Assembly (NCBI GenBank): GCA_958295675.1
Contig: OY282360.1
Span: 195,580 to 259,579 of the forward strand
Source of the DNA: Minisyncoccota bacterium
GTDB lineage: Bacteria > Patescibacteriota > Minisyncoccia > Phycocordibacterales > JABAAK01
Direction of reading: 5' to 3'
DNA: 64,000 nt
The notes beneath the pieces are model-generated. The model ran no database searches, was not told the origin of the DNA, and worked only from the letters and a program-made list of their open reading frames with translations. Made by a program: the position numbers and the translations under genes. The first letter of the stretch is position 1. The number at the start of each line of letters is the position of its first letter. Below are positions 64-49,699 of this stretch, piece by piece.

Positions 64-135
64 TGCCGGGTCGTCTAATTGGTAGGACGACGGGTTTTGG
101 TCCCGTTAATCTAGGTTCGAGTCCTAGCCCGGCAG
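64..135 (+). tRNA. tRNA-Gln (anticodon TTG)
   Basis: Cloverleaf read by eye: acceptor TGCCGGG/CCCGGCA, anticodon stem ACGGG/CCCGT with loop TTTTGGT, T-arm CTAGG-TTCGAGT-CCTAG. No encoded CCA. Confidence 0.6.
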
Positions 136-136
136 C

Positions 137-1192
137 ATGAGGACAGATAACCGAAAAATAGCGGTCGCCGTGTCGGGCGGGGTGGATTCATCGGTTGCCG
201 CGCATGTGCTCAAGGAGCAGGGGTGCGATGTGCACGGTGTGTTCATCGCCATCCGTAATCCGGCGCACATTCCCTGCACCCACGAGCAGGACAGGCAGGA
301 TGCCATGCGCGCTTGTGCCGCGCTCCGCATTCCGTTCGCGGAGTATGATGCGACTGAAACATACAGGAAACAGGTTATTGAACCGTTTGTAGAGGCGTAC
401 CGCCGCGGAGAGACACCGAATCCGGATATTCTCTGCAACACATACATAAAATTCGGCGTGCTGTGGGAATATTTGAAAGATAGGGGGTACGATACAGTCG
501 CGACCGGTCACTATGCCCGGGTGCGTGAGCGGAACAGCCGCGTTCAGCTCTGTCGCGCGAACGATGAGGAGAAGGATCAGACCTATTTTATACACGCTAT
601 AGCGCAGGAAGCACTGGATGCCGCACTGTTTCCAATCGGAGAGCGCACAAAAACGCAGGTACGCGCCATGGCGCGGAAAGCAAACCTCCCTGCAGCGGAC
701 AAAAAGGACAGTACGGGACTCTGTTTTCTCGGTGATGTGTCCATGCAGGATTTTCTCTCGGCGTACATTGAGCCGAAAAAAGGGGAGGTGGTGCTGGCGG
801 GTTCTGGAGAGAATATCGGTGAACATGACGGCGCGGCATTCTACACGCTCGGGCAGCGGCACGGGTTTACCGTCACCGCGAAAGAGCGTGGTCCGTACAT
901 AGTGACCGGCAAAGATGTTCATGCAAACACGCTGTTCGTTGCTCGCAAGGATGCAGAAGCGCAAGGGACGACGGTGTTCACGATCGTGGACACGGTGTTC
1001 CGTGAGCGACCGGACGGTGCGTTTCTCGCGCGCCATCGCCATCGCGGCGCGTTGTATCCCGTCTCCGCGCGCGCGGAAAAAGGAGATGAAGCGACTGTCA
1101 CCTATGAAACGCTGGTTACCGTCGCACCTGGTCAGTCAATCGTACTCTATACCGAAGACGGCGTGTGCATCGGCGGCGGTGCGGTGCGGTAG
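137..1192 (+). CDS. mnmA: tRNA-specific 2-thiouridylase MnmA
   Basis: N-terminal PP-loop motif AVAVSGGVDSSVAA, length 351 aa, and C-terminal features typical of MnmA. Confidence 0.85.
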   Translation: MRTDNRKIAVAVSGGVDSSVAAHVLKEQGCDVHGVFIAIRNPAHIPCTHEQDRQDAMRACAALRIPFAEYDATETYRKQVIEPFVEAYRRGETPNPDILCNTYIKFGVLWEYLKDRGYDTVATGHYARVRERNSRVQLCRANDEEKDQTYFIHAIAQEALDAALFPIGERTKTQVRAMARKANLPAADKKDSTGLCFLGDVSMQDFLSAYIEPKKGEVVLAGSGENIGEHDGAAFYTLGQRHGFTVTAKERGPYIVTGKDVHANTLFVARKDAEAQGTTVFTIVDTVFRERPDGAFLARHRHRGALYPVSARAEKGDEATVTYETLVTVAPGQSIVLYTEDGVCIGGGAVR

Positions 1193-1212: not shown

Positions 1213-2046
1213 GTGAAAAAGAAAGTTTTAAAACGGAACGGAACAGTTGTTAATTTTGAAAAAGGCATACTTGAGCGGTCGCTCCGCCGATCCGGCGCGC
1301 CGCATGATCTTGCCCAAACTATCGCGGCGGATATAGAAAAGGGGATGGCTGACGGTGATTCTACCGATATGGTGTACAAGGAGGCGTTTGAAATTCTTAA
1401 CGAACGCGCGAAAAATGTGGCGATGCAGTATTCGCTGAAAAAAGCGCTCTTCAATCTGGGACCGACCGGTTTTCCGTTTGAGCGATTTGTCTCCGAGATA
1501 TTCAAACGAAAAGGGTACGCCACGGCGACCAATGTGCATGTGAAGGGGCATTGTATAACGCATGAGGTGGATGTACTCACGACGGAACCGGAACGGATAG
1601 CCATGGAGGTGAAGTTTCATAATGATATGCACACCAGAACGGATGTGAAATCCGTGCTCTATATTAAAGCGCGCTTTGACGATCTCACGAGCAGAACAGC
1701 CGGCATGTTTTCAAAAAGGAAAGGCGCGGTGGACAAGTGTATCCTCATCACAAACACAAAGTTCACGCGGAGTGCCATCACCTATGCCGACTGCGCCGGG
1801 GTGTCGCTGTTAGGGTGGGGGTATCCGTACAGCAACAATCTCCAAACCTGTATTCAGGAAGTGGATGCGCATCCGATCACCTGTTTGCCGTCGCTGTCGC
1901 AATCGGCGGCGAGAGATTTGTTCAGTGAAGATGTCGTTACCTGCCGCGGTTTGCTGGAGCGGGAAGATCTGCTCAGCAACATGCAGAACGCCGACACGAT
2001 AGCCGCGGAAGCGGAGATGCTCTGCACGCCGTCGGGCAGGCGATAG
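1213..2046 (+). CDS. ATP-cone domain fused to Mrr-like restriction-endonuclease-fold domain protein
   Basis: ATP-cone-like N-terminus (VKKKVLKRNGTVVNFEKGILERSL). It is followed by an Mrr/REase-like core (GFPFERFVSEIFKRKGYATATNVHVKGHCITHEVDVLT). The ORF is open from 1165, but a GTG at 1213 fits the domain start, so the start is uncertain. Confidence 0.6.
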   Translation: MKKKVLKRNGTVVNFEKGILERSLRRSGAPHDLAQTIAADIEKGMADGDSTDMVYKEAFEILNERAKNVAMQYSLKKALFNLGPTGFPFERFVSEIFKRKGYATATNVHVKGHCITHEVDVLTTEPERIAMEVKFHNDMHTRTDVKSVLYIKARFDDLTSRTAGMFSKRKGAVDKCILITNTKFTRSAITYADCAGVSLLGWGYPYSNNLQTCIQEVDAHPITCLPSLSQSAARDLFSEDVVTCRGLLEREDLLSNMQNADTIAAEAEMLCTPSGRR

Positions 2047-2051
2047 CACGG

Positions 2052-2852
2052 ATGTCGGCGATAGCATATACTACAGACATGCTTCAGCACGCCACGAGAA
2101 AGAGTAATATTTTTAATCCGGATAGTGATGAGCCGTTTGCTCTTTCCAGAAGTAAGATAGATTTATTTTTTAACTGTCCCCGCTGTTTCTACCTGGACAG
2201 GCGGTTGGGTGTCGCACCGCCGAAGGGATTTCCGTTCAATTTAAACGATGCGGTGGATACACTTTTTAAAAAGGAATTTGACAAGTACAGAGAGAAACAG
2301 GAGCCGCACCCGCTGGTGAAGGAAGCGGGGCTGGATCTCGTGCCGTTTCCGCATGCGGACTTGGAAACATGGCGCGCGCCGTTCACCGGTATTCGTTTTC
2401 ACCACAAAGATTCAAATTTCATAGTGTTCGGCGGCGTGGATGATGTGTGGCACGACACCAAAGAGACACTCACTGTAGTTGATTACAAGGCGACCAGCAA
2501 AAAAGATGGAGAGGAGGTGTCCATAGACGCACCGTGGCAGAGAGGGTATAAAAGGCAGATTGAAGTATATCAATGGTTGTTCGGACAGAACGGCTTTACG
2601 GTCTCGGATACCGGCTATTTTGTCTACGCCAACGCCGACCGCGCAAAAGAAGATTTCAGTGATACCCTCTCGTTTGTGACAAAACTCATCCCGTACACCG
2701 GCAGTGTCGGTTGGATAGAGGAGACGCTTATGAAAGCGAAAGAAACACTCCTTGCGGACACGATTCCGGAGGCGGGGCAGTATTGCGACTTCTGTCCGTA
2801 TCGCGATGCGGCGGGAAAATCATTCCGCGATCATGTGACGAGAGGTCAGTAG
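2052..2852 (+). CDS. Cas4-like / RecB-family PD-(D/E)XK nuclease, probably Fe-S (stand-alone)
   Basis: Motifs GGVDDVWH, VVDYKATSK (D-x-K) and RQIEVYQWL (QhxxY). Four Cys arranged CPRC near the N-terminus and CDFCPY near the C-terminus. No CRISPR array nearby. Confidence 0.65.
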   Translation: MSAIAYTTDMLQHATRKSNIFNPDSDEPFALSRSKIDLFFNCPRCFYLDRRLGVAPPKGFPFNLNDAVDTLFKKEFDKYREKQEPHPLVKEAGLDLVPFPHADLETWRAPFTGIRFHHKDSNFIVFGGVDDVWHDTKETLTVVDYKATSKKDGEEVSIDAPWQRGYKRQIEVYQWLFGQNGFTVSDTGYFVYANADRAKEDFSDTLSFVTKLIPYTGSVGWIEETLMKAKETLLADTIPEAGQYCDFCPYRDAAGKSFRDHVTRGQ

Positions 2853-5583: not shown

Positions 5584-5654
5584 CGCATATTTATAACAGT
5601 CCGAGCGGGATGCTATGGAGGTGATACAGAGGATGTGTGCTACATTCTTTGTAT

Positions 5655-7508
5655 ATGGAACTGAACGAAGTCCGGAAACGGTATCTGGATTATATGCGCG
5701 ATCGCGGGCATAGTGTGCTGGCATCAGCACCGCTGGTGCCGCGGGAAGACAGTACGACATTATTCACCGGATCCGGCATGCAACCGCTGGTGCCGTACCT
5801 GCTGGGAAAGGAGCATCCGAAGGGTACGCGGCTGGCGAATGCGCAGAAATGTTTCCGGGCGAATGATATTGATGAGGTCGGGGACAACAGACATACAACA
5901 TTTTTTGAAATGCTCGGAAACTGGTCGCTCGGCAGTTACTTTAAGAAAGAACAGATAGAACAGTGCTTTTTATTCCTCACCGATCCGAACAGCGGACTCG
6001 GATTGAATCCGGAACGGCTGTATGTGTCGGTGTTCGCGGGCGATAAGTTGCTCAATATTCCGCGCGATGAAGAATCAGCGGAGGTGTGGCGGCAGTTATT
6101 TACCAGTGCCGGTGTCACTGCCGAAACAGCACATATCGGCTCAAAAGAGAACGGAGACCGGCGCGGCATAAAGAATGGTGAACGCATTTTTTTCTATGAC
6201 GCGGATGAAAATTGGTGGAGCAGATCCGGTTCACCGGATACCATGCCTGTCGGTGAGCCGGGCGGTCCGGATACCGAGGTGTTCTATGATTTCGGCGATT
6301 CCGCGGCAGACCCCGCGTACGCGGATATGAAACCGCATCCCGCATCCGATTCCGGTCGGTTTGTGGAGATAGGGAACTCTGTTTTTATGCAGCACATCCG
6401 TACGAAGAACGGATTCACGCAACTGCCGAAGAAAAATGTTGATTTTGGCGGCGGTCTGGAACGGTTGGTTGCCGCGACGGAGGATACCGCGGATATATTC
6501 CGGATTGATGCGTTCGCATCATGTATCTCGGCACTTGCCGAGCGTTCCGGTATCGCATACGATACCCGCCCAAGACCGTTCAGGATAGTTGCCGATCATC
6601 TACGCGCCGCTATGTTCATTGCTGCGGACGGAGTATCGCCGTCAAATACGGATCAAGGATATGTTCTGCGCCGGCTCGTGCGCAGTGCGGTCTACAATGT
6701 GCAGTACGGGCTCGGTATCGCGGATCTGCCGCTCACGGTACTGGTGCCGTCTATGGTCTCAATGTATGCGGATCGGTATCCTGAGATTGCGGAAGAGAGG
6801 GTCGTTCAGACCATTGGAGATGAGGAGGAGCGATTTATAACGACCTTGCAAAAGGGTACAAAGGTATTTGATGCCATAGCAAAAAAGGGTGCAATCACCG
6901 GCGAGGAGATGTTCACGCTGCAGAGTACCTACGGATTCCCGAAAGAGTTGACGATATCGCTTGCCCGGGAGAAACATGTTTCGGTATCATCAGACGGCTA
7001 TGTCAGCGCGATGCACCGGCATCGTGAGTCGTCCCGTCAGGCGAGTGAGCGGAAGTTCAAAGGCGGTCTCGCTGACGCGAGCGATATGAGCGTAAAGTAT
7101 CACACCGCGACACATCTATTACATCAGGCACTGCGGGATGTTCTCGGAAACACGGTGGAACAGCGCGGATCAAACATCACACCGGAACGGTTGCGGTTTG
7201 ATTTTTCATACGATAGAAAATTAACTGATGAGGAAAAAAAACAGGTGGAGACCGTTGTAAACGACAAGATTCAGGAAGGACTGGAAGTACGGTGCATGGA
7301 TATGCCGCTTGAAGAAGCCCGGCGGCTCGGTGCTATCGGCACATTTGAATACGGCGACACGGTACGTGTCTACTGCATCGGCGAGTACAGTAAGGAGTTC
7401 TGTGGCGGTCCCCATGTCGGCAATACCGCGGATCTCGGCTCATTCCGCATTACAAAAGAGGAGTCAGTCGCTGCCGGAATCCGCCGTATTAAAGCGGTAT
7501 TAGAATGA
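5655..7508 (+). CDS. alaS: alanine--tRNA ligase (short form)
   Basis: N-terminal class II core: LFTGSGMQ, FRANDIDEVGDNRHTTFFEMLGNWSLGSYFK. Editing-domain HxxxH (HTATHLLHQALRDVLG). Preferred start is MELNEV at 5655; the ORF is open from GTG 5637. Confidence 0.85.
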   Translation: MELNEVRKRYLDYMRDRGHSVLASAPLVPREDSTTLFTGSGMQPLVPYLLGKEHPKGTRLANAQKCFRANDIDEVGDNRHTTFFEMLGNWSLGSYFKKEQIEQCFLFLTDPNSGLGLNPERLYVSVFAGDKLLNIPRDEESAEVWRQLFTSAGVTAETAHIGSKENGDRRGIKNGERIFFYDADENWWSRSGSPDTMPVGEPGGPDTEVFYDFGDSAADPAYADMKPHPASDSGRFVEIGNSVFMQHIRTKNGFTQLPKKNVDFGGGLERLVAATEDTADIFRIDAFASCISALAERSGIAYDTRPRPFRIVADHLRAAMFIAADGVSPSNTDQGYVLRRLVRSAVYNVQYGLGIADLPLTVLVPSMVSMYADRYPEIAEERVVQTIGDEEERFITTLQKGTKVFDAIAKKGAITGEEMFTLQSTYGFPKELTISLAREKHVSVSSDGYVSAMHRHRESSRQASERKFKGGLADASDMSVKYHTATHLLHQALRDVLGNTVEQRGSNITPERLRFDFSYDRKLTDEEKKQVETVVNDKIQEGLEVRCMDMPLEEARRLGAIGTFEYGDTVRVYCIGEYSKEFCGGPHVGNTADLGSFRITKEESVAAGIRRIKAVLE

Positions 7509-7766: not shown

Positions 7767-9032
7767 ATGAAAAGAATAATTATTTTTTCCGTTATTATTT
7801 TTGTAATTGTTCTTGTTCTTGTGACTACCACATTCGCGACTACCACACTTCGTTTGACGCTCACTAGCGCAGAACTTTCAGTTGACGGGGTATTCTCTGC
7901 AATCCGAGAACCGGCGCAATCAGCGGATATCGCGTACGGCAAGGTCGGTCCGTACACTGAAACTCGGTCGGCAACAATAACAAACATAACAAGAGAGCGG
8001 CAGAACAGCTATGCTGAAGGCACCATCATGGTGCATAACACGAATACATCCGGTGAGAAACTTGATTTAGTGAATCGGACGCGGTTTCAGACAAAAGACG
8101 GCAGAATATACCGGCTGAGCGGCAAACAGATTATTCCCGGCGGCAAGACCGTGAACGGCGAATTTGTGCCGGGCAGAAAAGAAGTGAGAGTGGTGGCCGA
8201 TGCTATCGGTAATGAGTTTAATTTAAAGGAGAAAGGAGTACGATTCACCATTCCTGGTTTGGCGAAGTACAAGGAGTTTTCATCCTCATACGCTGTTTCA
8301 ACGACAAAGATTGTAGGCGGCTTCAGCGGTGAACGGTTTATTCCCGATGCAGCGGAAGAAAAGGCGGCGCGGGAGAAACTGCGCGGAGACATCGCATCCG
8401 CTTTGGAACAGAAACTTACAGAAGCACTGCAGACCAACACACTTTCAAAGAAGATTGTTTTTGACAGCGCGAAATTTATCACATACGAGTCGCTGGAGAA
8501 TAAACAGGTTGACGATGCGGTGATGATTCAGGAAAAAGGTGAGATGTACGCGGTTTCGTTCAGGGAGACGGAACTTGCGTCTTTGCTCGCGAAATCCGAG
8601 AGTATGTCGGTCGGCGTGCCGAGCTCGGTGACACCGACTGAGGTGACAGTGGTGAATCTGGCAATGGAAATGGTTGACGCGAATGAGTTTGAAGTGACCA
8701 CATCAACTGAGTTTGATTTCCGTCTGTCCGGTGTGGCGAAAGTGTACTGGACGGTGGACGAAGTGCTATTCCTGGGCGACATAGCCGGTAAGAAGAGGAT
8801 TGAGGTTGAGGATATTATTCTTAACCGGTATCCGCAGGTGCAGAAGATTAATGTGTTCTCAATCTTCCCGCCGTGGCGGACAAGCGTACCCGGCAACAGG
8901 AAGAAAATCAATGTTACCGTGGGATACAGCAGAGGGGATGAGCGACAGGAAATGCCGCTGACTGGCGACAGGGAGGAAGAGGAGGAAAAGACAGAAGAAG
9001 AGAAAGAAGAAGGGGAAGATCAGGAGGAATAA
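7767..9032 (+). CDS. hypothetical membrane-anchored protein with acidic C-terminal tail
   Basis: Start MKRIIIFSVIIFVIVLVLV (TM). C-terminal EEEEKTEEEKEEGEDQEE. The ORF is open from 7608 but the upstream part is Arg/Gln-rich and unlikely to be coding. Confidence 0.5.
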   Translation: MKRIIIFSVIIFVIVLVLVTTTFATTTLRLTLTSAELSVDGVFSAIREPAQSADIAYGKVGPYTETRSATITNITRERQNSYAEGTIMVHNTNTSGEKLDLVNRTRFQTKDGRIYRLSGKQIIPGGKTVNGEFVPGRKEVRVVADAIGNEFNLKEKGVRFTIPGLAKYKEFSSSYAVSTTKIVGGFSGERFIPDAAEEKAAREKLRGDIASALEQKLTEALQTNTLSKKIVFDSAKFITYESLENKQVDDAVMIQEKGEMYAVSFRETELASLLAKSESMSVGVPSSVTPTEVTVVNLAMEMVDANEFEVTTSTEFDFRLSGVAKVYWTVDEVLFLGDIAGKKRIEVEDIILNRYPQVQKINVFSIFPPWRTSVPGNRKKINVTVGYSRGDERQEMPLTGDREEEEEKTEEEKEEGEDQEE

Positions 9033-9035
9033 TCA

Positions 9036-9704
9036 CTACCGAGCCAACGCGATAGTGATAACAGCACTCGCACCGGCAGCGGTCAATGCTCGTCGTGCCT
9101 CGGAGAGAGTCGCACCGGTAGTGGTCACATCATCAATGACGAAACACACAGTATTGTCCGGCACAGGGTGCGATGCACGCATCGCACCGGTAACATTTTT
9201 CATCCGATCCGTCCGTCGTTTTAATCCGCTTTGCCGGACGACTGCCCGTGTCCATACAAGCATATCCCGGGCATCTGTTATGTCCGACAACGAAAACAAA
9301 TCCGATGATGCGTCGCGGTATATCGCATCCAATACGGCATACATATGATTGTATCCTTCTTTTTCTTTCCGCGCGGCAGTAATTGGTACGGTACAGAGCA
9401 GATACCCATTTTTTTCAAGCGATTCCATTTCATGGTATTCACCGAGCAGACAGTCGCACAGCATATTCGCGGCGAGCGTGATGCTCTCCGCATGTTTTTC
9501 ATACTTTACCGCGCGTATAAGGTGTTTTACCGAAGGATGTTGATAGGGTAGAAGCGATATATGCCCGTTCCGCATTTCCTGTGTTCTGTGCTTCAGGACG
9601 GCATCAGTACCGAGCGCGGTCATACGCTCGCTGTGCGGCGGCTCAGGGAAGATGCTGCGCAGAAAAGCAATGCATACCGCTCTGATGTATTCGATAAAAC
9701 GCAT
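9036..9704 (-). CDS. comFC: ComF family phosphoribosyltransferase-domain protein (ComFC)
   Basis: PRTase motif VCFVIDDVTTTGATLSEA. Cys/His-rich N-terminal part. Divergent from pilM. Confidence 0.75.
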   Translation of the reverse strand: MRFIEYIRAVCIAFLRSIFPEPPHSERMTALGTDAVLKHRTQEMRNGHISLLPYQHPSVKHLIRAVKYEKHAESITLAANMLCDCLLGEYHEMESLEKNGYLLCTVPITAARKEKEGYNHMYAVLDAIYRDASSDLFSLSDITDARDMLVWTRAVVRQSGLKRRTDRMKNVTGAMRASHPVPDNTVCFVIDDVTTTGATLSEARRALTAAGASAVITIALAR

Positions 9705-9764: not shown

Positions 9765-10898
9765 ATGGCGTTTTCAGATTTATTCTCATCGATAGGCTCA
9801 CTGTTTTCCGGCGGCAGGGCTGCCGCGGTCGGTATTGATATCGGCTCATCTTCGGTGAAGATAGTGCAAATACACAAAGAAAAAGGGGCGGCAGTTCTGG
9901 ACACATACGGCTCGCTGGCGATAGGTCCGTATGTGGAAAATGCTGAGATAGGACAGTACACGAACGCGAGCGAGGAGGTACTGCATACGGTACTCACGGC
10001 ACTGATAAAAGAGGCACAGATCACCGCGACCTCGGTTTGCGTGTCAATTCCGTTTCATTCAAGCTTAATATCGCTTATTGATGTACCGCCGCTGAGTGAC
10101 GAAAAAATAGCACAGGTGATACCGTTTGAAGCGAAGCGGTACATACCGGTGCCGCTTGAGGATGTATCCATTGATTGGTTCGTGGTGCCGAAGGCACTGC
10201 TGGACCGCGATGACATGTCATTGTTCCATAAAGATAAACCGACCGCGATGCCGGCGAAAGAAGAAAAGCGGAAAGTGCTGCTAATCGCTATCCATAATCA
10301 TGAGCTTTTGAAGCACAAAAATATTCTCAGCCGAACCGAACTGAACACGAAATATTTTGAAATTGAGATTTTCAGCACACTCCGGTCCTCAGTATACGAA
10401 ACTCGCCTGCCCATCATCCTTATTGACATCGGTGCCCGCACCACAAAGTTTTATATAGTTGACCACGGCATTATTCTTCGCTCGCTGTTTATTAATCAGG
10501 GCGGACAGTCAATAACGCAGGCAATAGTACATGCCGAGAACATACCGTTCAAAGAAGCGGAGCATAAAAAACGGGAACTCGGTTTTGACATACCGGATAA
10601 AAACACAAAAGAGGCGATGGCTCTCGTGACGGACGAAATGTTTTCCGAAGCGAATAACGCGATTGTTGATTTTGAGCAGCGCTATCACCGGTCTATTTCA
10701 AAAATTGTACTGACCGGCGGCGGTGCGGTGATGAAGGGGATATTGGAAGAAGCGAAGAAAAAAACTAATATAGCGGTTGAAATGGCAAATCCATTCGGAC
10801 GATTACGGCATCCGGCATTTCTCAGTGATGCTCTGAAAGAATCAGGATCTGAATTTGCCGTGGCGGTCGGCAGTGCCATGCGCGCTCTAAATGAGTGA
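9765..10898 (+). CDS. pilM: type IV pilus assembly protein PilM (actin-like ATPase)
   Basis: N-terminal AVGIDIGSSSVKIVQI motif, 377 aa, followed by pilN/O/B/T/C genes. Confidence 0.85.
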   Translation: MAFSDLFSSIGSLFSGGRAAAVGIDIGSSSVKIVQIHKEKGAAVLDTYGSLAIGPYVENAEIGQYTNASEEVLHTVLTALIKEAQITATSVCVSIPFHSSLISLIDVPPLSDEKIAQVIPFEAKRYIPVPLEDVSIDWFVVPKALLDRDDMSLFHKDKPTAMPAKEEKRKVLLIAIHNHELLKHKNILSRTELNTKYFEIEIFSTLRSSVYETRLPIILIDIGARTTKFYIVDHGIILRSLFINQGGQSITQAIVHAENIPFKEAEHKKRELGFDIPDKNTKEAMALVTDEMFSEANNAIVDFEQRYHRSISKIVLTGGGAVMKGILEEAKKKTNIAVEMANPFGRLRHPAFLSDALKESGSEFAVAVGSAMRALNE

Positions 10899-47386: not shown

Positions 47387-49699
47387 GTGGTGTATATGTT
47401 ATTACTGGACAGAATATTCGGGACTGAATCAGAAAAATATGTCAAACGGGCCGAACAAATGGTACAGGATGTTCAGGCGCATCGGAAACATATAGCCGAG
47501 CTTTCTGATGAAGCACTGCAAAAAAAGACAGAGGAGTTCAAAACATCACTTACATCAGGAAAATCTTTGGATGATTGCATGTCCGAAGCGTGTGCCGTGG
47601 TGAGCGAGGCGGCGAAACGGACGACGGAGATGGATCCGTTTAATGTGCAGATAATCGGTTCGTCAGTGCTGCACAGGGGATCCATAGCGGAAATGCGCAC
47701 CGGTGAGGGAAAAACATTGGTGGCGGTGCCGGCAGCATACCTAAACGCACTCACCGGAAAACCGGTGCATATTGTCACGGTAAACGATTATCTCGCACGC
47801 AGGGATGCGGTGTGGATGGGACAAATTTTCTCGTTATTAGGCATGTCAGTCGGTGTGATCAATTCACAGAACCAATCCTTTGAATATGATCCCGGACATA
47901 CCGAAAAAGATAAGGAACGGGACACAAAAGGGGAATATAAGGTGATGTATGATTTTCTCCGGGAAACCACGCGTCAGAATGCGTACCGATGTGATATTGT
48001 ATACGGCACCAACAATGAGTATGTTTTTGACTACTTGCGGGACAATATTGAATACGACAGCGGCAATATTCGCCATCGGGGATTCCACTTCGCTATTGTT
48101 GACGAGGTTGATTCAATCCTCATTGATGAGGCGCGCAGTCCGCTTATTATCTCAAGCGCGGCGAATATTCCGGCATCACACTATATACAGTTCGCGCAGT
48201 TCGCGGAAACATTGCAGGAAAAAGAAGATTATACTATCGATGAGAAACATCGGGGAGTGTCGCTGACTCAATCCGGTATACAGAAGTTTGAAACAGCACT
48301 GAAAGTACAAAACGCGTTTGTAGAAGGGGGTCAGCGTACCGTGCACTATCTTCAGAATGCGCTGAAAGCAAAGTCATTGTTTAAAAAGGATAAACAGTAT
48401 GTGGTACAGGACAATAAAATTGTCATTGTAGATGAATTTACGGGACGATTGCAGCACGGTCGGCAATGGAGCGAGGGATTGCATCAGGCAATAGAAGCGA
48501 AGGAGGGGGTCGCAATACAGCAGGAAACGCGCACCTATGCCTCAATAACCTATCAGAACTATTTCAGAATGTACGACAAACTCGCCGGCATGACCGGCAC
48601 CGCGGCATCATCCGCGGAAGAATTTTTGAAAGTGTACAAAATGGAGGTGGTCAGCATTCCGACAAACAAACCGTCACACCGCATTGATCATCCGGACATT
48701 ATCTATCAGACACAAGCGGCGAAACTGCGCGCAACGGTAAAAAAAATTAAAGAACTGCATGAAAAAGGACAGCCGGTACTGGTCGGCACCGCATCCATAG
48801 AGCATAATGAAGCTCTTTCAAAACGGTTGAAGAAGGCAAAAGTGCCGCATGAAATATTGAACGCGAAAAACCACGAACGCGAAGGTGAAATTATCGCGCA
48901 GGCCGGCAAGAAGGGCATGGTAACCGTGGCAACCAACCTTGCAGGGCGGGGTGTGGATATAAAATTAGGCGGTCCGACCGGCGAGGCATCGGAAAAGGAT
49001 GCGGAAGAGGTCAAGAACCTCGGCGGACTCTTTGTGCTCGGCACTGAACGGCACGAATCACGGCGCATTGACAACCAGCTGCGCGGTCGTTGCGGTCGGC
49101 AGGGAGATGCGGGAGAAACACAGTTTTTTATATCGCTTGAAGATGATCTGACGCGAGTCTTCGGCTCTGAGCAAGTGCTCAATATAGCGAAACGGCTCGG
49201 TCTGCCGGAAGATCAGGCGATACAGAACAGGATTATAACAAAATCCATAGAAAGCGCTCAGCAACGGATTGAAGGACATCATTTTGATGCGCGACGATTC
49301 AGCTTGCAGTACGATACAGTGCTGAACACCCACCGATCGGAAGTATACACCCGACGGCAGGCAGTGTTGTCTGCAGATAAGGAAACGGCATTTTCTGAAT
49401 ATATGTCCGGAGAATATGTGGCGCGCATACAGGAGAAACACGGAAAGGAATCTTTTGAAACAATAAAAAAGATTATATTGAGAAGTATTGATATGGGATG
49501 GATGGAGCATCTGGAACTGATGGATTACGCGAAAAGCAGCGCCAATCTTCGGTCTTACGGTCAGCGCGAACCGCTTATGGAGTACAGAAAAGAAAGCATC
49601 CGTCTTTTTGAGGGATTCTGGAAACGGGTGAACAATATCGTTGGACAGACGATACAGGAGGAACGGAAAAAACAGAATACGGATTCTCAGCCCGCATAA
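47387..49699 (+). CDS. secA: preprotein translocase ATPase SecA
   Basis: DEAD-like motor domains (MRTGEGKTLVA, DEVDSILIDEARSPLII), preprotein cross-linking domain. 770 aa. Confidence 0.9.
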   Translation: MVYMLLLDRIFGTESEKYVKRAEQMVQDVQAHRKHIAELSDEALQKKTEEFKTSLTSGKSLDDCMSEACAVVSEAAKRTTEMDPFNVQIIGSSVLHRGSIAEMRTGEGKTLVAVPAAYLNALTGKPVHIVTVNDYLARRDAVWMGQIFSLLGMSVGVINSQNQSFEYDPGHTEKDKERDTKGEYKVMYDFLRETTRQNAYRCDIVYGTNNEYVFDYLRDNIEYDSGNIRHRGFHFAIVDEVDSILIDEARSPLIISSAANIPASHYIQFAQFAETLQEKEDYTIDEKHRGVSLTQSGIQKFETALKVQNAFVEGGQRTVHYLQNALKAKSLFKKDKQYVVQDNKIVIVDEFTGRLQHGRQWSEGLHQAIEAKEGVAIQQETRTYASITYQNYFRMYDKLAGMTGTAASSAEEFLKVYKMEVVSIPTNKPSHRIDHPDIIYQTQAAKLRATVKKIKELHEKGQPVLVGTASIEHNEALSKRLKKAKVPHEILNAKNHEREGEIIAQAGKKGMVTVATNLAGRGVDIKLGGPTGEASEKDAEEVKNLGGLFVLGTERHESRRIDNQLRGRCGRQGDAGETQFFISLEDDLTRVFGSEQVLNIAKRLGLPEDQAIQNRIITKSIESAQQRIEGHHFDARRFSLQYDTVLNTHRSEVYTRRQAVLSADKETAFSEYMSGEYVARIQEKHGKESFETIKKIILRSIDMGWMEHLELMDYAKSSANLRSYGQREPLMEYRKESIRLFEGFWKRVNNIVGQTIQEERKKQNTDSQPA

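Follow-up and report, generated by a model that had tools for sequence, protein, structure and literature searches.

The subject of this analysis is a pair of adjacent genes near the start of a 64,000-nucleotide stretch of DNA (the window) from a Minisyncoccota bacterium of the Patescibacteriota (GenBank assembly GCA_958295675.1, contig OY282360.1, positions 195,580 to 259,579 of the forward strand); coordinates given without a locus number count from the first nucleotide of the window, and tRNA-Gln, mnmA, G1, G2 and alaS lie on the + strand. Gene 1 (G1, 1213..2046) runs from a GTG start at 1213 through 277 codons to a TAG stop at 2044-2046, and its product of 277 residues, identical in sequence and length to the database protein P0001, consists of an ATP-cone, a PD-(D/E)XK nuclease of the Mrr/AF1548 type and an AF1548-like C-terminal domain. 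Gene 2 (G2, 2052..2852) extends from an ATG at 2052 to a TGA at 2850-2852 and encodes a solo Cas4/RecB-like PD-(D/E)XK nuclease (PF12705) of 266 residues. A preliminary description of the locus had seen in the two genes a tightly coupled module, for defence or DNA processing rather than housekeeping, in which G2 starts 5 bp after the G1 stop. This spacing is correct for the ATG at 2052, and fails if G2 uses the alternative, conserved start at 2079: since the homologues of G2 begin at the residue that matches M10, the true gap may be 32 nucleotides. A terminator-like site was searched for between G1 and G2 and none was found; in the window the two genes are probably co-transcribed, with neither dependent on the other.

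Domains and conserved residues of the two nucleases

The ATP-cone of G1 (residues 1-86, 1213..1470) scores 27.5 bits against PF03477 when residues 1-90 are searched alone (cutoff 25.8), and most G1 homologues carry a precomputed match to this model. The nuclease core (residues 87-205, 1471..1827) matches Mrr_cat (PF04471) with 30.6 bits, over a cutoff of 21; the Pfam scan of G1 returned no further domain. The rest of the protein is a helical C-terminal domain (residues 206-277, 1828..2043) of the AF1548-like_C family (PF22357), which is above cutoff in the G1 homologues P0062 and P0388; the C-terminal 77 residues of the window G1, scanned alone, gave no Pfam match. The sole relative by sequence with a solved structure is AF1548 of Archaeoglobus fulgidus (PDB 1Y88; E = 1.8e-20 over residues 91-250 of G1), which like G1 joins Mrr_cat to AF1548-like_C. 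Together these matches bear out the earlier recognition of gene 1 as a fusion of an ATP-cone with an Mrr_cat-like domain. Unlike G1, AF1548 has no ATP-cone (the alignment starts at its residue 22) and no equivalent of C224; it is a structural-genomics protein of unknown function, so the match assigns no activity to G1. In the AlphaFold 2 (AF2) model of G1, built on 79 homologues with a mean predicted local distance difference test (pLDDT) value of 93.5, the N-terminus has the beta-hairpin and helical-bundle fold of the cones of ribonucleotide reductase (RNR) and NrdR, and the fold relatives of the protein include restriction-fold nucleases (AspBHI, score 10.5; NucS, 9.8; MspJI, 9.2; Can2, 9.2; NucC, 8.1; Card1, 8.0).

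Six residues of the nuclease (E90, H117, E118, D120, E132 and K134) do not vary in any of the 79 homologues, whose identities span 39-100%. Because the catalytic E90 (codon 1480-1482), D120 (1570-1572), E132 (1606-1608) and K134 (1612-1614) are among them, the active site of G1 is intact as judged from the alignment. A catalytically dead protein was also considered, and was ruled out by the invariance of the catalytic motif. The same residues bear on the proposal that G1 is mainly a nucleotide-responsive DNA-binding regulator like NrdR, in which the nuclease fold and the C-terminal domain would only bind DNA and to which G2 would be unrelated. A preprint reports that the ATP-cones of NrdR respond to ATP/dATP with changes of oligomeric state and of DNA binding (bioRxiv 10.1101/2024.05.27.596032); an ATP-cone joined to a DNA-binding module would repeat the logic of NrdR, and in Mariniflexile the gene for the RNR large subunit is found about 5 kb upstream of the G1 homologue. 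Against this, invariance of all four catalytic residues is the pattern expected of an active enzyme, not of a binding-only fold, and the Patescibacteria loci display neither a conserved operator nor linkage to RNR; we regard a mainly regulatory G1 as very improbable. The preliminary description had itself named a mere regulator as the outcome that would count against its view of gene 1; since the catalytic residues are retained, gene 1 does not appear to be one.

Within the cone, K7, T51, Y55, Y73 and K/R76-77 are conserved across the 79 sequences; paired by eye with E. coli NrdA, they may correspond to K9, T55, H59, F87 and K91. BLASTP of the G1 cone against the N-terminus of NrdA gave no alignment, and a profile of 28 G1 cones run against the PDB gave RNR and NrdR cones as weak matches only (E = 0.03-0.3), ranked below spurious hits to designed helical repeats. 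Four cysteines are also conserved among the 79 homologues: C114 (1552-1554) in all, C194 (1792-1794) in 78, C224 (1882-1884) in 73 and C244 (1942-1944) again in all. They are spread across the nuclease core and the C-terminal domain, which holds the last two, and AF1548 has three of them; together they might build a metal or redox site.

G1 has a cone in common with NrdR and the RNRs, but its output module is a nuclease, in place of their zinc-ribbon DNA binder or reductase. Compared with the type IV enzymes Mrr, MspJI and AspBHI it lacks a winged-helix or SRA-like reader of modified DNA and has an ATP-cone instead (no modified-DNA recognition domain was found in the G1 N-terminus, which is the cone itself); moreover its gene belongs to the vertically inherited core and occupies a fixed locus, unlike a mobile defence gene. 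It differs from the ligand-activated PD-(D/E)XK defence nucleases Can2, Card1, NucC and Cap4 in that its sensor is not a CARF, SAVED or NucC-type pocket; it comes with neither a cyclase nor a CBASS or type III CRISPR partner, and PADLOC gives no system-level match. Searches of the literature for AF1548, or for ATP-cone in combination with nuclease, endonuclease or Mrr, gave nothing relevant, and G1 is a catalogued combination of domains without published characterisation in the literature searched. To our knowledge, experimental work on ATP-cones has dealt only with their regulation of ribonucleotide reductases and of NrdR.

The best model for G2 is PDDEXK_1 (PF12705), at 42.2 bits over a cutoff of 22, and all listed G2 homologues carry it; the Cas4 model TIGR00372 reaches 31.4 bits, under its cutoff of 65, and the Cas4 family PF01930 gave no match to the window G2 at E<=1. 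On these profile scores G2 appears to be an end-processing nuclease of the Cas4/RecB superfamily, from the PF12705 branch, and no true Cas4. Nine residues are invariant in 72 homologues, and they include the RecB-type motifs D...D/E-x-K...QxxxY, present as D131 (2442-2444), D144-Y-K146 (2481-2489) and Q169...Y173 (2556-2570), and four cysteines spaced 2+2, as one CxxC at C42 and C45 (2175-2186) and a second at C245 and C248 (2784-2795); the AF2 model has a pLDDT of 94.2. The portrayal of gene 2 as a RecB/Cas4-like PD-(D/E)XK nuclease with D-x-K and QhxxY motifs and a 2+2 cysteine arrangement is in full agreement with these data.

In Cas4 and AddB the cysteine pattern is 1+3, C...CxxCx5C (as in SSO0001 and AddB). 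Because the 2+2 spacing of G2 departs from it, the metal bound by G2 could be zinc instead of an iron-sulphur (Fe-S) cluster; going by the sequence and the model, the Cys4 site would lie roughly where Cas4, AddB and Dna2 have their Fe-S 'staple'. Besides its best model and its cysteines, G2 differs from Cas4 and solo-Cas4 proteins (SSO0001, Pcal_0546, the type I-C Cas4, M. mazei Solo-Cas4) in being without cas1/cas2 or a CRISPR array. It is related to the nuclease domains of AddB, AdnA, Dna2, EXO5 and MGME1, without a fused helicase. G2 is a protein of known kind. Solo-Cas4 genes are enriched in the candidate phyla radiation (CPR), where a role in repair or defence has been proposed and not defined (Hudaiberdiev et al. 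2017, PMC5704561).

The conserved array and its inheritance

Genomes from GTDB, each species represented by a single one, were scanned for a pattern; this yielded at least 600 candidate stretches, of which at least 596 encode a relative of G1. The neighbourhoods described below are those of the best 80 of these more than 596 loci, the ones most similar to the query, with 8 kb read on each side; they come mostly from Patescibacteria-group (CPR) lineages, and their gene order was derived from clustering of open reading frames (ORFs) with Pfam checks. A co-directional order recurs in them: leuS-sigma-70-like-DUF8128-mltG/YceG-mnmA-G1-[DUF7282]-[MgtC]-[G2]-[ogt]-[udg]-[YfbR-like HD]-alaS-two unknowns-infA-rpsM-rpsK-rpsD. 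Contrary to the statement of the preliminary description that the pair is not in a core operon, it sits inside a long co-directional array that reaches from leuS and the sigma factor gene to alaS and rpsM-rpsK-rpsD.

Upstream, the conserved gene before G1 is mnmA in 63 of 79 loci, and mnmA lies within 1.5 kb of G1 in 59 of 69. The window conforms to this, with mnmA (tRNA 2-thiouridylase; 137..1192; Pfam tRNA_Me_trans, 237 bits) as the upstream neighbour of G1 and a tRNA-Gln(UUG) gene identified by ARAGORN (64..136), whose last base directly precedes the mnmA start; both neighbours had been named in the preliminary description. MnmA thiolates U34 in a set of tRNAs that includes tRNA-Gln. The near-constant adjacency of mnmA and G1, together with a tRNA of the MnmA substrate type directly upstream in the window, could be explained if G1 acted with MnmA on RNA or tRNA, in processing or quality control, and some PD-(D/E)XK folds are indeed RNA nucleases. 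This explanation is, in our estimate, hardly credible: G1 keeps its slot in the array without mnmA at two loci (L002, L088), the flavobacterial homologues are not beside mnmA, and the nearest structures are those of DNA enzymes (AF1548, AspBHI, MspJI, NucS), tRNA endonucleases having far lower scores.

On the downstream side the array is more variable. In ORF order, the conserved gene that follows G1 in the 79 loci is MgtC in 18, G2 in 13, DUF7282 in 12, udg in 10, the HD gene in 7 and alaS in 7; alaS lies downstream of G1 in 46 of 80 loci. G2 is followed, for the most part directly abutting, by ogt (17 loci), udg (5) or alaS (1), so that in 22 of 23 cases its successor is ogt or udg, a tighter link than the one to G1. 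By tblastn, G2 is less than 300 bp from G1 in 12 of 75 loci, within 3 kb in 25 of 61 and within 8 kb in 19 of 50; in the other 31 of 50 it is missing from the 8 kb downstream. The adjacency seen in the window is kept in its close relatives, including on shared contigs of 2-12 kb. The notion of tight coupling is not upheld by these numbers, as the two genes are direct neighbours in only 13 of 79 loci and each occurs without the other, nor is the pair generally conserved as neighbours in related genomes, a check that the preliminary description had proposed.

Several features of the array deserve mention in their own right. The gene directly after G1 at 7 loci (L010, L013, L015, L036, L042, L053 and L081, in the last at 8824-9441) encodes an HD_3/YfbR-like 5'-deoxynucleotidase, adding an enzyme of deoxynucleotide turnover to the segment of G1, G2, ogt and udg. 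The downstream anchor in the window, alaS (5637..7508; Pfam tRNA-synt_2c, 357 bits), encodes only the catalytic core and tRNA_SAD in 623 residues, and the related loci are similar (587-615 residues); bacterial AlaRS is typically longer, at about 870 residues. Five G1 loci outside the array (L046, L055, L073, L075 and L080) have no common partner, their neighbours being drawn from PilB/secretin, AAA_14/DUF4143, beta-CASP, oxidoreductase and ZIP transporter genes.

G1 and G2 are inherited vertically and diverge in step with their housekeeping neighbours. The matrix of pairwise identities for G1 correlates with those for mnmA, mltG and the sigma factor with Spearman coefficients of 0.43-0.64, which may be set beside 0.46-0.51 for the housekeeping pairs among themselves; the coefficient for G2 and alaS is 0.49. 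Median pairwise identities are 0.46 for G1 and 0.54 for G2, compared with 0.39 for mltG, 0.51 for mnmA and 0.55 for alaS. The GC content of the pair is ordinary for the window (z-scores 0.74 and 0.12), with GC and GC3 both less than 1.5 standard deviations from the window genes. Recent horizontal acquisition of G1 or G2 was tried as an explanation and is ruled out by the normal GC and the congruent divergence.

Separate occurrence and the search for defence genes

Each of the two genes is found without the other. In another Patescibacteria lineage (locus L084, 836-8816) a G2 homologue of 60% identity ends the co-directional run uvrB-uvrA-CYTH-uvrC plus two small unknown genes, and G1 is not present; this is a second, independent link of G2 to DNA excision repair. 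At a further locus (L086) the G2 homologue stands in the usual array with ogt, and other genes fill the slot of G1. The families also differ in size: clustered at 90% identity, G1 relatives form 2,066 clusters and G2 relatives at least 7,981. At 50% identity there are 357 strong G1 clusters, of about 275-290 residues, and no fusion of G1 with G2 was seen in the best 150 G1 cluster representatives (215-335 residues).

G1 is common, too, in cultured Flavobacteriaceae (Flagellimonas, Gelidibacter, Mariniflexile, Kordia, Maribacter, Salinimicrobium, Xanthomarina, Confluentibacter), where it is labelled 'ATP cone domain-containing protein' or 'restriction endonuclease', and no G2 was found at the flavobacterial loci. 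In Flavobacteriaceae and Bacteroidia (L090, 7235-8837; L092, 2400-5849; L091, 5001-7215; L073, 7866-10217) G1 adjoins a LOG-like SLOG-cluster4 gene, the two overlapping by 17 nucleotides in Flagellimonas, or lies directly upstream of a beta-CASP metallo-beta-lactamase nuclease gene. The Mariniflexile homologue sits among four Usp genes, HSP20 and the upstream RNR gene mentioned above, a neighbourhood that looks like a stress or dormancy cluster.

Among 2.9 million viral contigs there was no relative of G1. Relatives of G2 are on 13 predicted viral contigs at 36-58% identity. One of these (L093, 69-8891; IMG/VR IMGVR_UViG_3300042876_001093) is a phage-like contig on which the G2 homologue (58% identity) lies next to a terminase gene and is surrounded by genes for a DNA methylase, a Pif1/RecD helicase and a Res-like helicase that also has a TnsA-like endonuclease domain; identities on the remaining 12 are 36-55%. 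That the PF12705 branch is shared with phages had already been noted (PMC5704561).

Tandem- and direct-repeat scans detected no CRISPR array in the window, PADLOC found no cas gene in the rest of the window ORFs (46, each of 150 residues or more), and none occurs among the conserved families of the 80 related loci, so that the absence of CRISPR arrays and cas genes from the window, as first described, is confirmed. The only PADLOC matches in those 46 ORFs are to phosphoribosyltransferase (PRTase)-like members of ShosT and PsyrT, one each (about 1e-8), and their source is probably a ComF-like PRTase-domain protein (9036-9704, - strand). The gene for the latter adjoins a PilM gene (9765-10898), and the two are parts of a type IV pilus or DNA-uptake machinery. 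PADLOC returned only domain-level matches of 15-19 bits for G1 and only Cas4 domain models for G2. No methylase partner was found in the window neighbourhood or among the conserved families of the 80 loci, and no toxin-antitoxin partner or other defence gene was found near the pair in the window. Elsewhere in the window, at 47017-47261, about five tandem copies of an A/G-rich unit of 45-48 nucleotides (71-100% identical) stand directly upstream of a long ORF (47387-49699), whose frame may begin earlier and encode a charged repeat.

These observations weigh heavily on the proposal of a dedicated two-gene system against phages or plasmids, in which a nucleotide pool altered by infection would trigger G1 and G2 would then degrade the cut DNA. 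Such a system would be hard to reconcile with a position fixed within an array of core genes, with genes that are separable and that each occur alone in several genomes, and with vertical inheritance, housekeeping-level conservation and normal GC; the lack of methylase, toxin-antitoxin or other defence partners nearby, the absence of G1 from the viral contigs and the low-level PADLOC matches also speak against it. We consider it quite improbable. Of the alternatives offered in the preliminary description, defence or DNA processing but not housekeeping, defence and the non-housekeeping character are not supported by these data, and DNA processing is still plausible.

A looser form of cooperation is better placed, though we judge it unlikely as well. 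In a pathway of DNA degradation and salvage, G1 would nick or cut imported or damaged DNA at low (d)ATP, G2 would resect it to mononucleotides, and the YfbR-like HD 5'-deoxynucleotidase and others would feed salvage, the members cooperating without being obligate partners. Patescibacteria are not known to make nucleotides de novo, and such a pathway would suit them. Almost every gene in the variable segment between mnmA and alaS has to do with DNA or deoxynucleotides (G1, G2, ogt, udg, YfbR-like HD); G1 is directly followed by G2 or by the HD gene in the 13 and 7 loci counted above, and has G2 within 3 kb in 25 of 61. The DNA-uptake components PilM and ComF-like PRTase are in the same window, and the flavobacterial G1 is beside genes for a LOG-like nucleotide hydrolase, a beta-CASP nuclease, Usp and HSP20. 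However, G2 is not in the neighbourhood of G1 at 31 of 50 loci, has a stronger association with the repair genes ogt, udg and uvrABC, and is never fused to G1 in the 150 representatives inspected; moreover all the evidence of association comes from genes of a single block, the whole of which is conserved, and the salvage role is purely conjectural.

Interpretation in terms of DNA metabolism

On balance we favour the view that G1 and G2 serve DNA metabolism as two separate core genes, each inherited vertically, within an old conserved array of Paceibacteria-type Patescibacteria, and not as obligate partners: they stand side by side because both belong to that co-directional array. The domain make-up, the catalytic residues, the synteny, the separability and the vertical inheritance on which this view draws are observed. 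By analogy with known ATP-cone proteins, G1 is probably a DNA endonuclease gated by (d)ATP. It is predicted to be an active, Mg-dependent enzyme of the Mrr/AF1548 type whose N-terminal cone, as in NrdR and RNR, would bind ATP or dATP and switch the nuclease on or off through nucleotide-dependent oligomerisation; DNA cleavage, in repair, recombination or turnover and salvage, would in this way be coupled to the nucleotide or energy state of the cell. G2 would be a solo Cas4-like exonuclease, acting 5'-3' on single strands or on DNA ends, and would process ends or flaps in repair or recombination together with the adjacent alkyltransferase, the uracil glycosylase or UvrABC. For G2 a role in repair is favoured over one in defence because its neighbours are ogt, udg and uvrABC.

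Several points must be set against the view of two separate core genes so described. Adjacency to G1 recurs in scattered lineages (39-68% G1 identity); given this recurrence and its retention in the close relatives of the window, the two genes may have been neighbours ancestrally and been separated afterwards, when other genes were inserted or when G2 was lost or moved, so that a degree of cooperation is conceivable. Repair as the task of G2 is likewise proposed from neighbours in an array that is wholly conserved, where adjacency may reflect synteny and not function. The G2 family is shared with phages and so is not purely cellular, since 13 viral contigs carry relatives and at least one of them is a real phage. 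As to the sensor of G1, the ATP-cone score of the whole protein is 24.4 bits, slightly below the cutoff of 25.8, and the cone of the window clade (22 sequences of at least 55% identity) has R8 (1234-1236), V13 (1249-1251) and I19 (1267-1269) where more distant members of the family mostly have A/R/S8, E13 and K19; in the hairpin of the cone charged residues have thus been exchanged in concert, two consensus positions being replaced (E13->V and K19->I), and ligand binding could be altered. Finally, we infer, and do not observe, the biochemical function of both proteins, that is, their substrates, the ligand, the direction of regulation and the physiological role.

A bolder possibility, to which we give a modest chance at best, is that G1 is the first nuclease controlled by an ATP-cone, core in Paceibacteria-type Patescibacteria (at least 596 species representatives) and common in Flavobacteriaceae, and that it cuts DNA only at particular levels of ATP or dATP. 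Breakdown of DNA, whether as salvage of imported or damaged DNA or as self-limiting cleavage in starvation or infection, would then be tied to the nucleotide pool, with C114, C194, C224 and C244 as a possible metal or redox input.

Had the defence pair been real, it would have added a new immune system to the few defences known in these bacteria; the evidence is against it, and a phage-challenge experiment is spared. What emerges in its place is a large conserved family, uncharacterised in the literature searched, that joins an ATP-cone to an apparently intact restriction-fold nuclease, and because culturable Flavobacteriaceae carry G1, nucleotide-gated cleavage of DNA is directly testable. 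For the Patescibacteria, whose capacity for repair is poorly understood, the set of G1, G2, ogt, udg and HD genes provides a compact list of candidates for DNA repair and deoxynucleotide metabolism.

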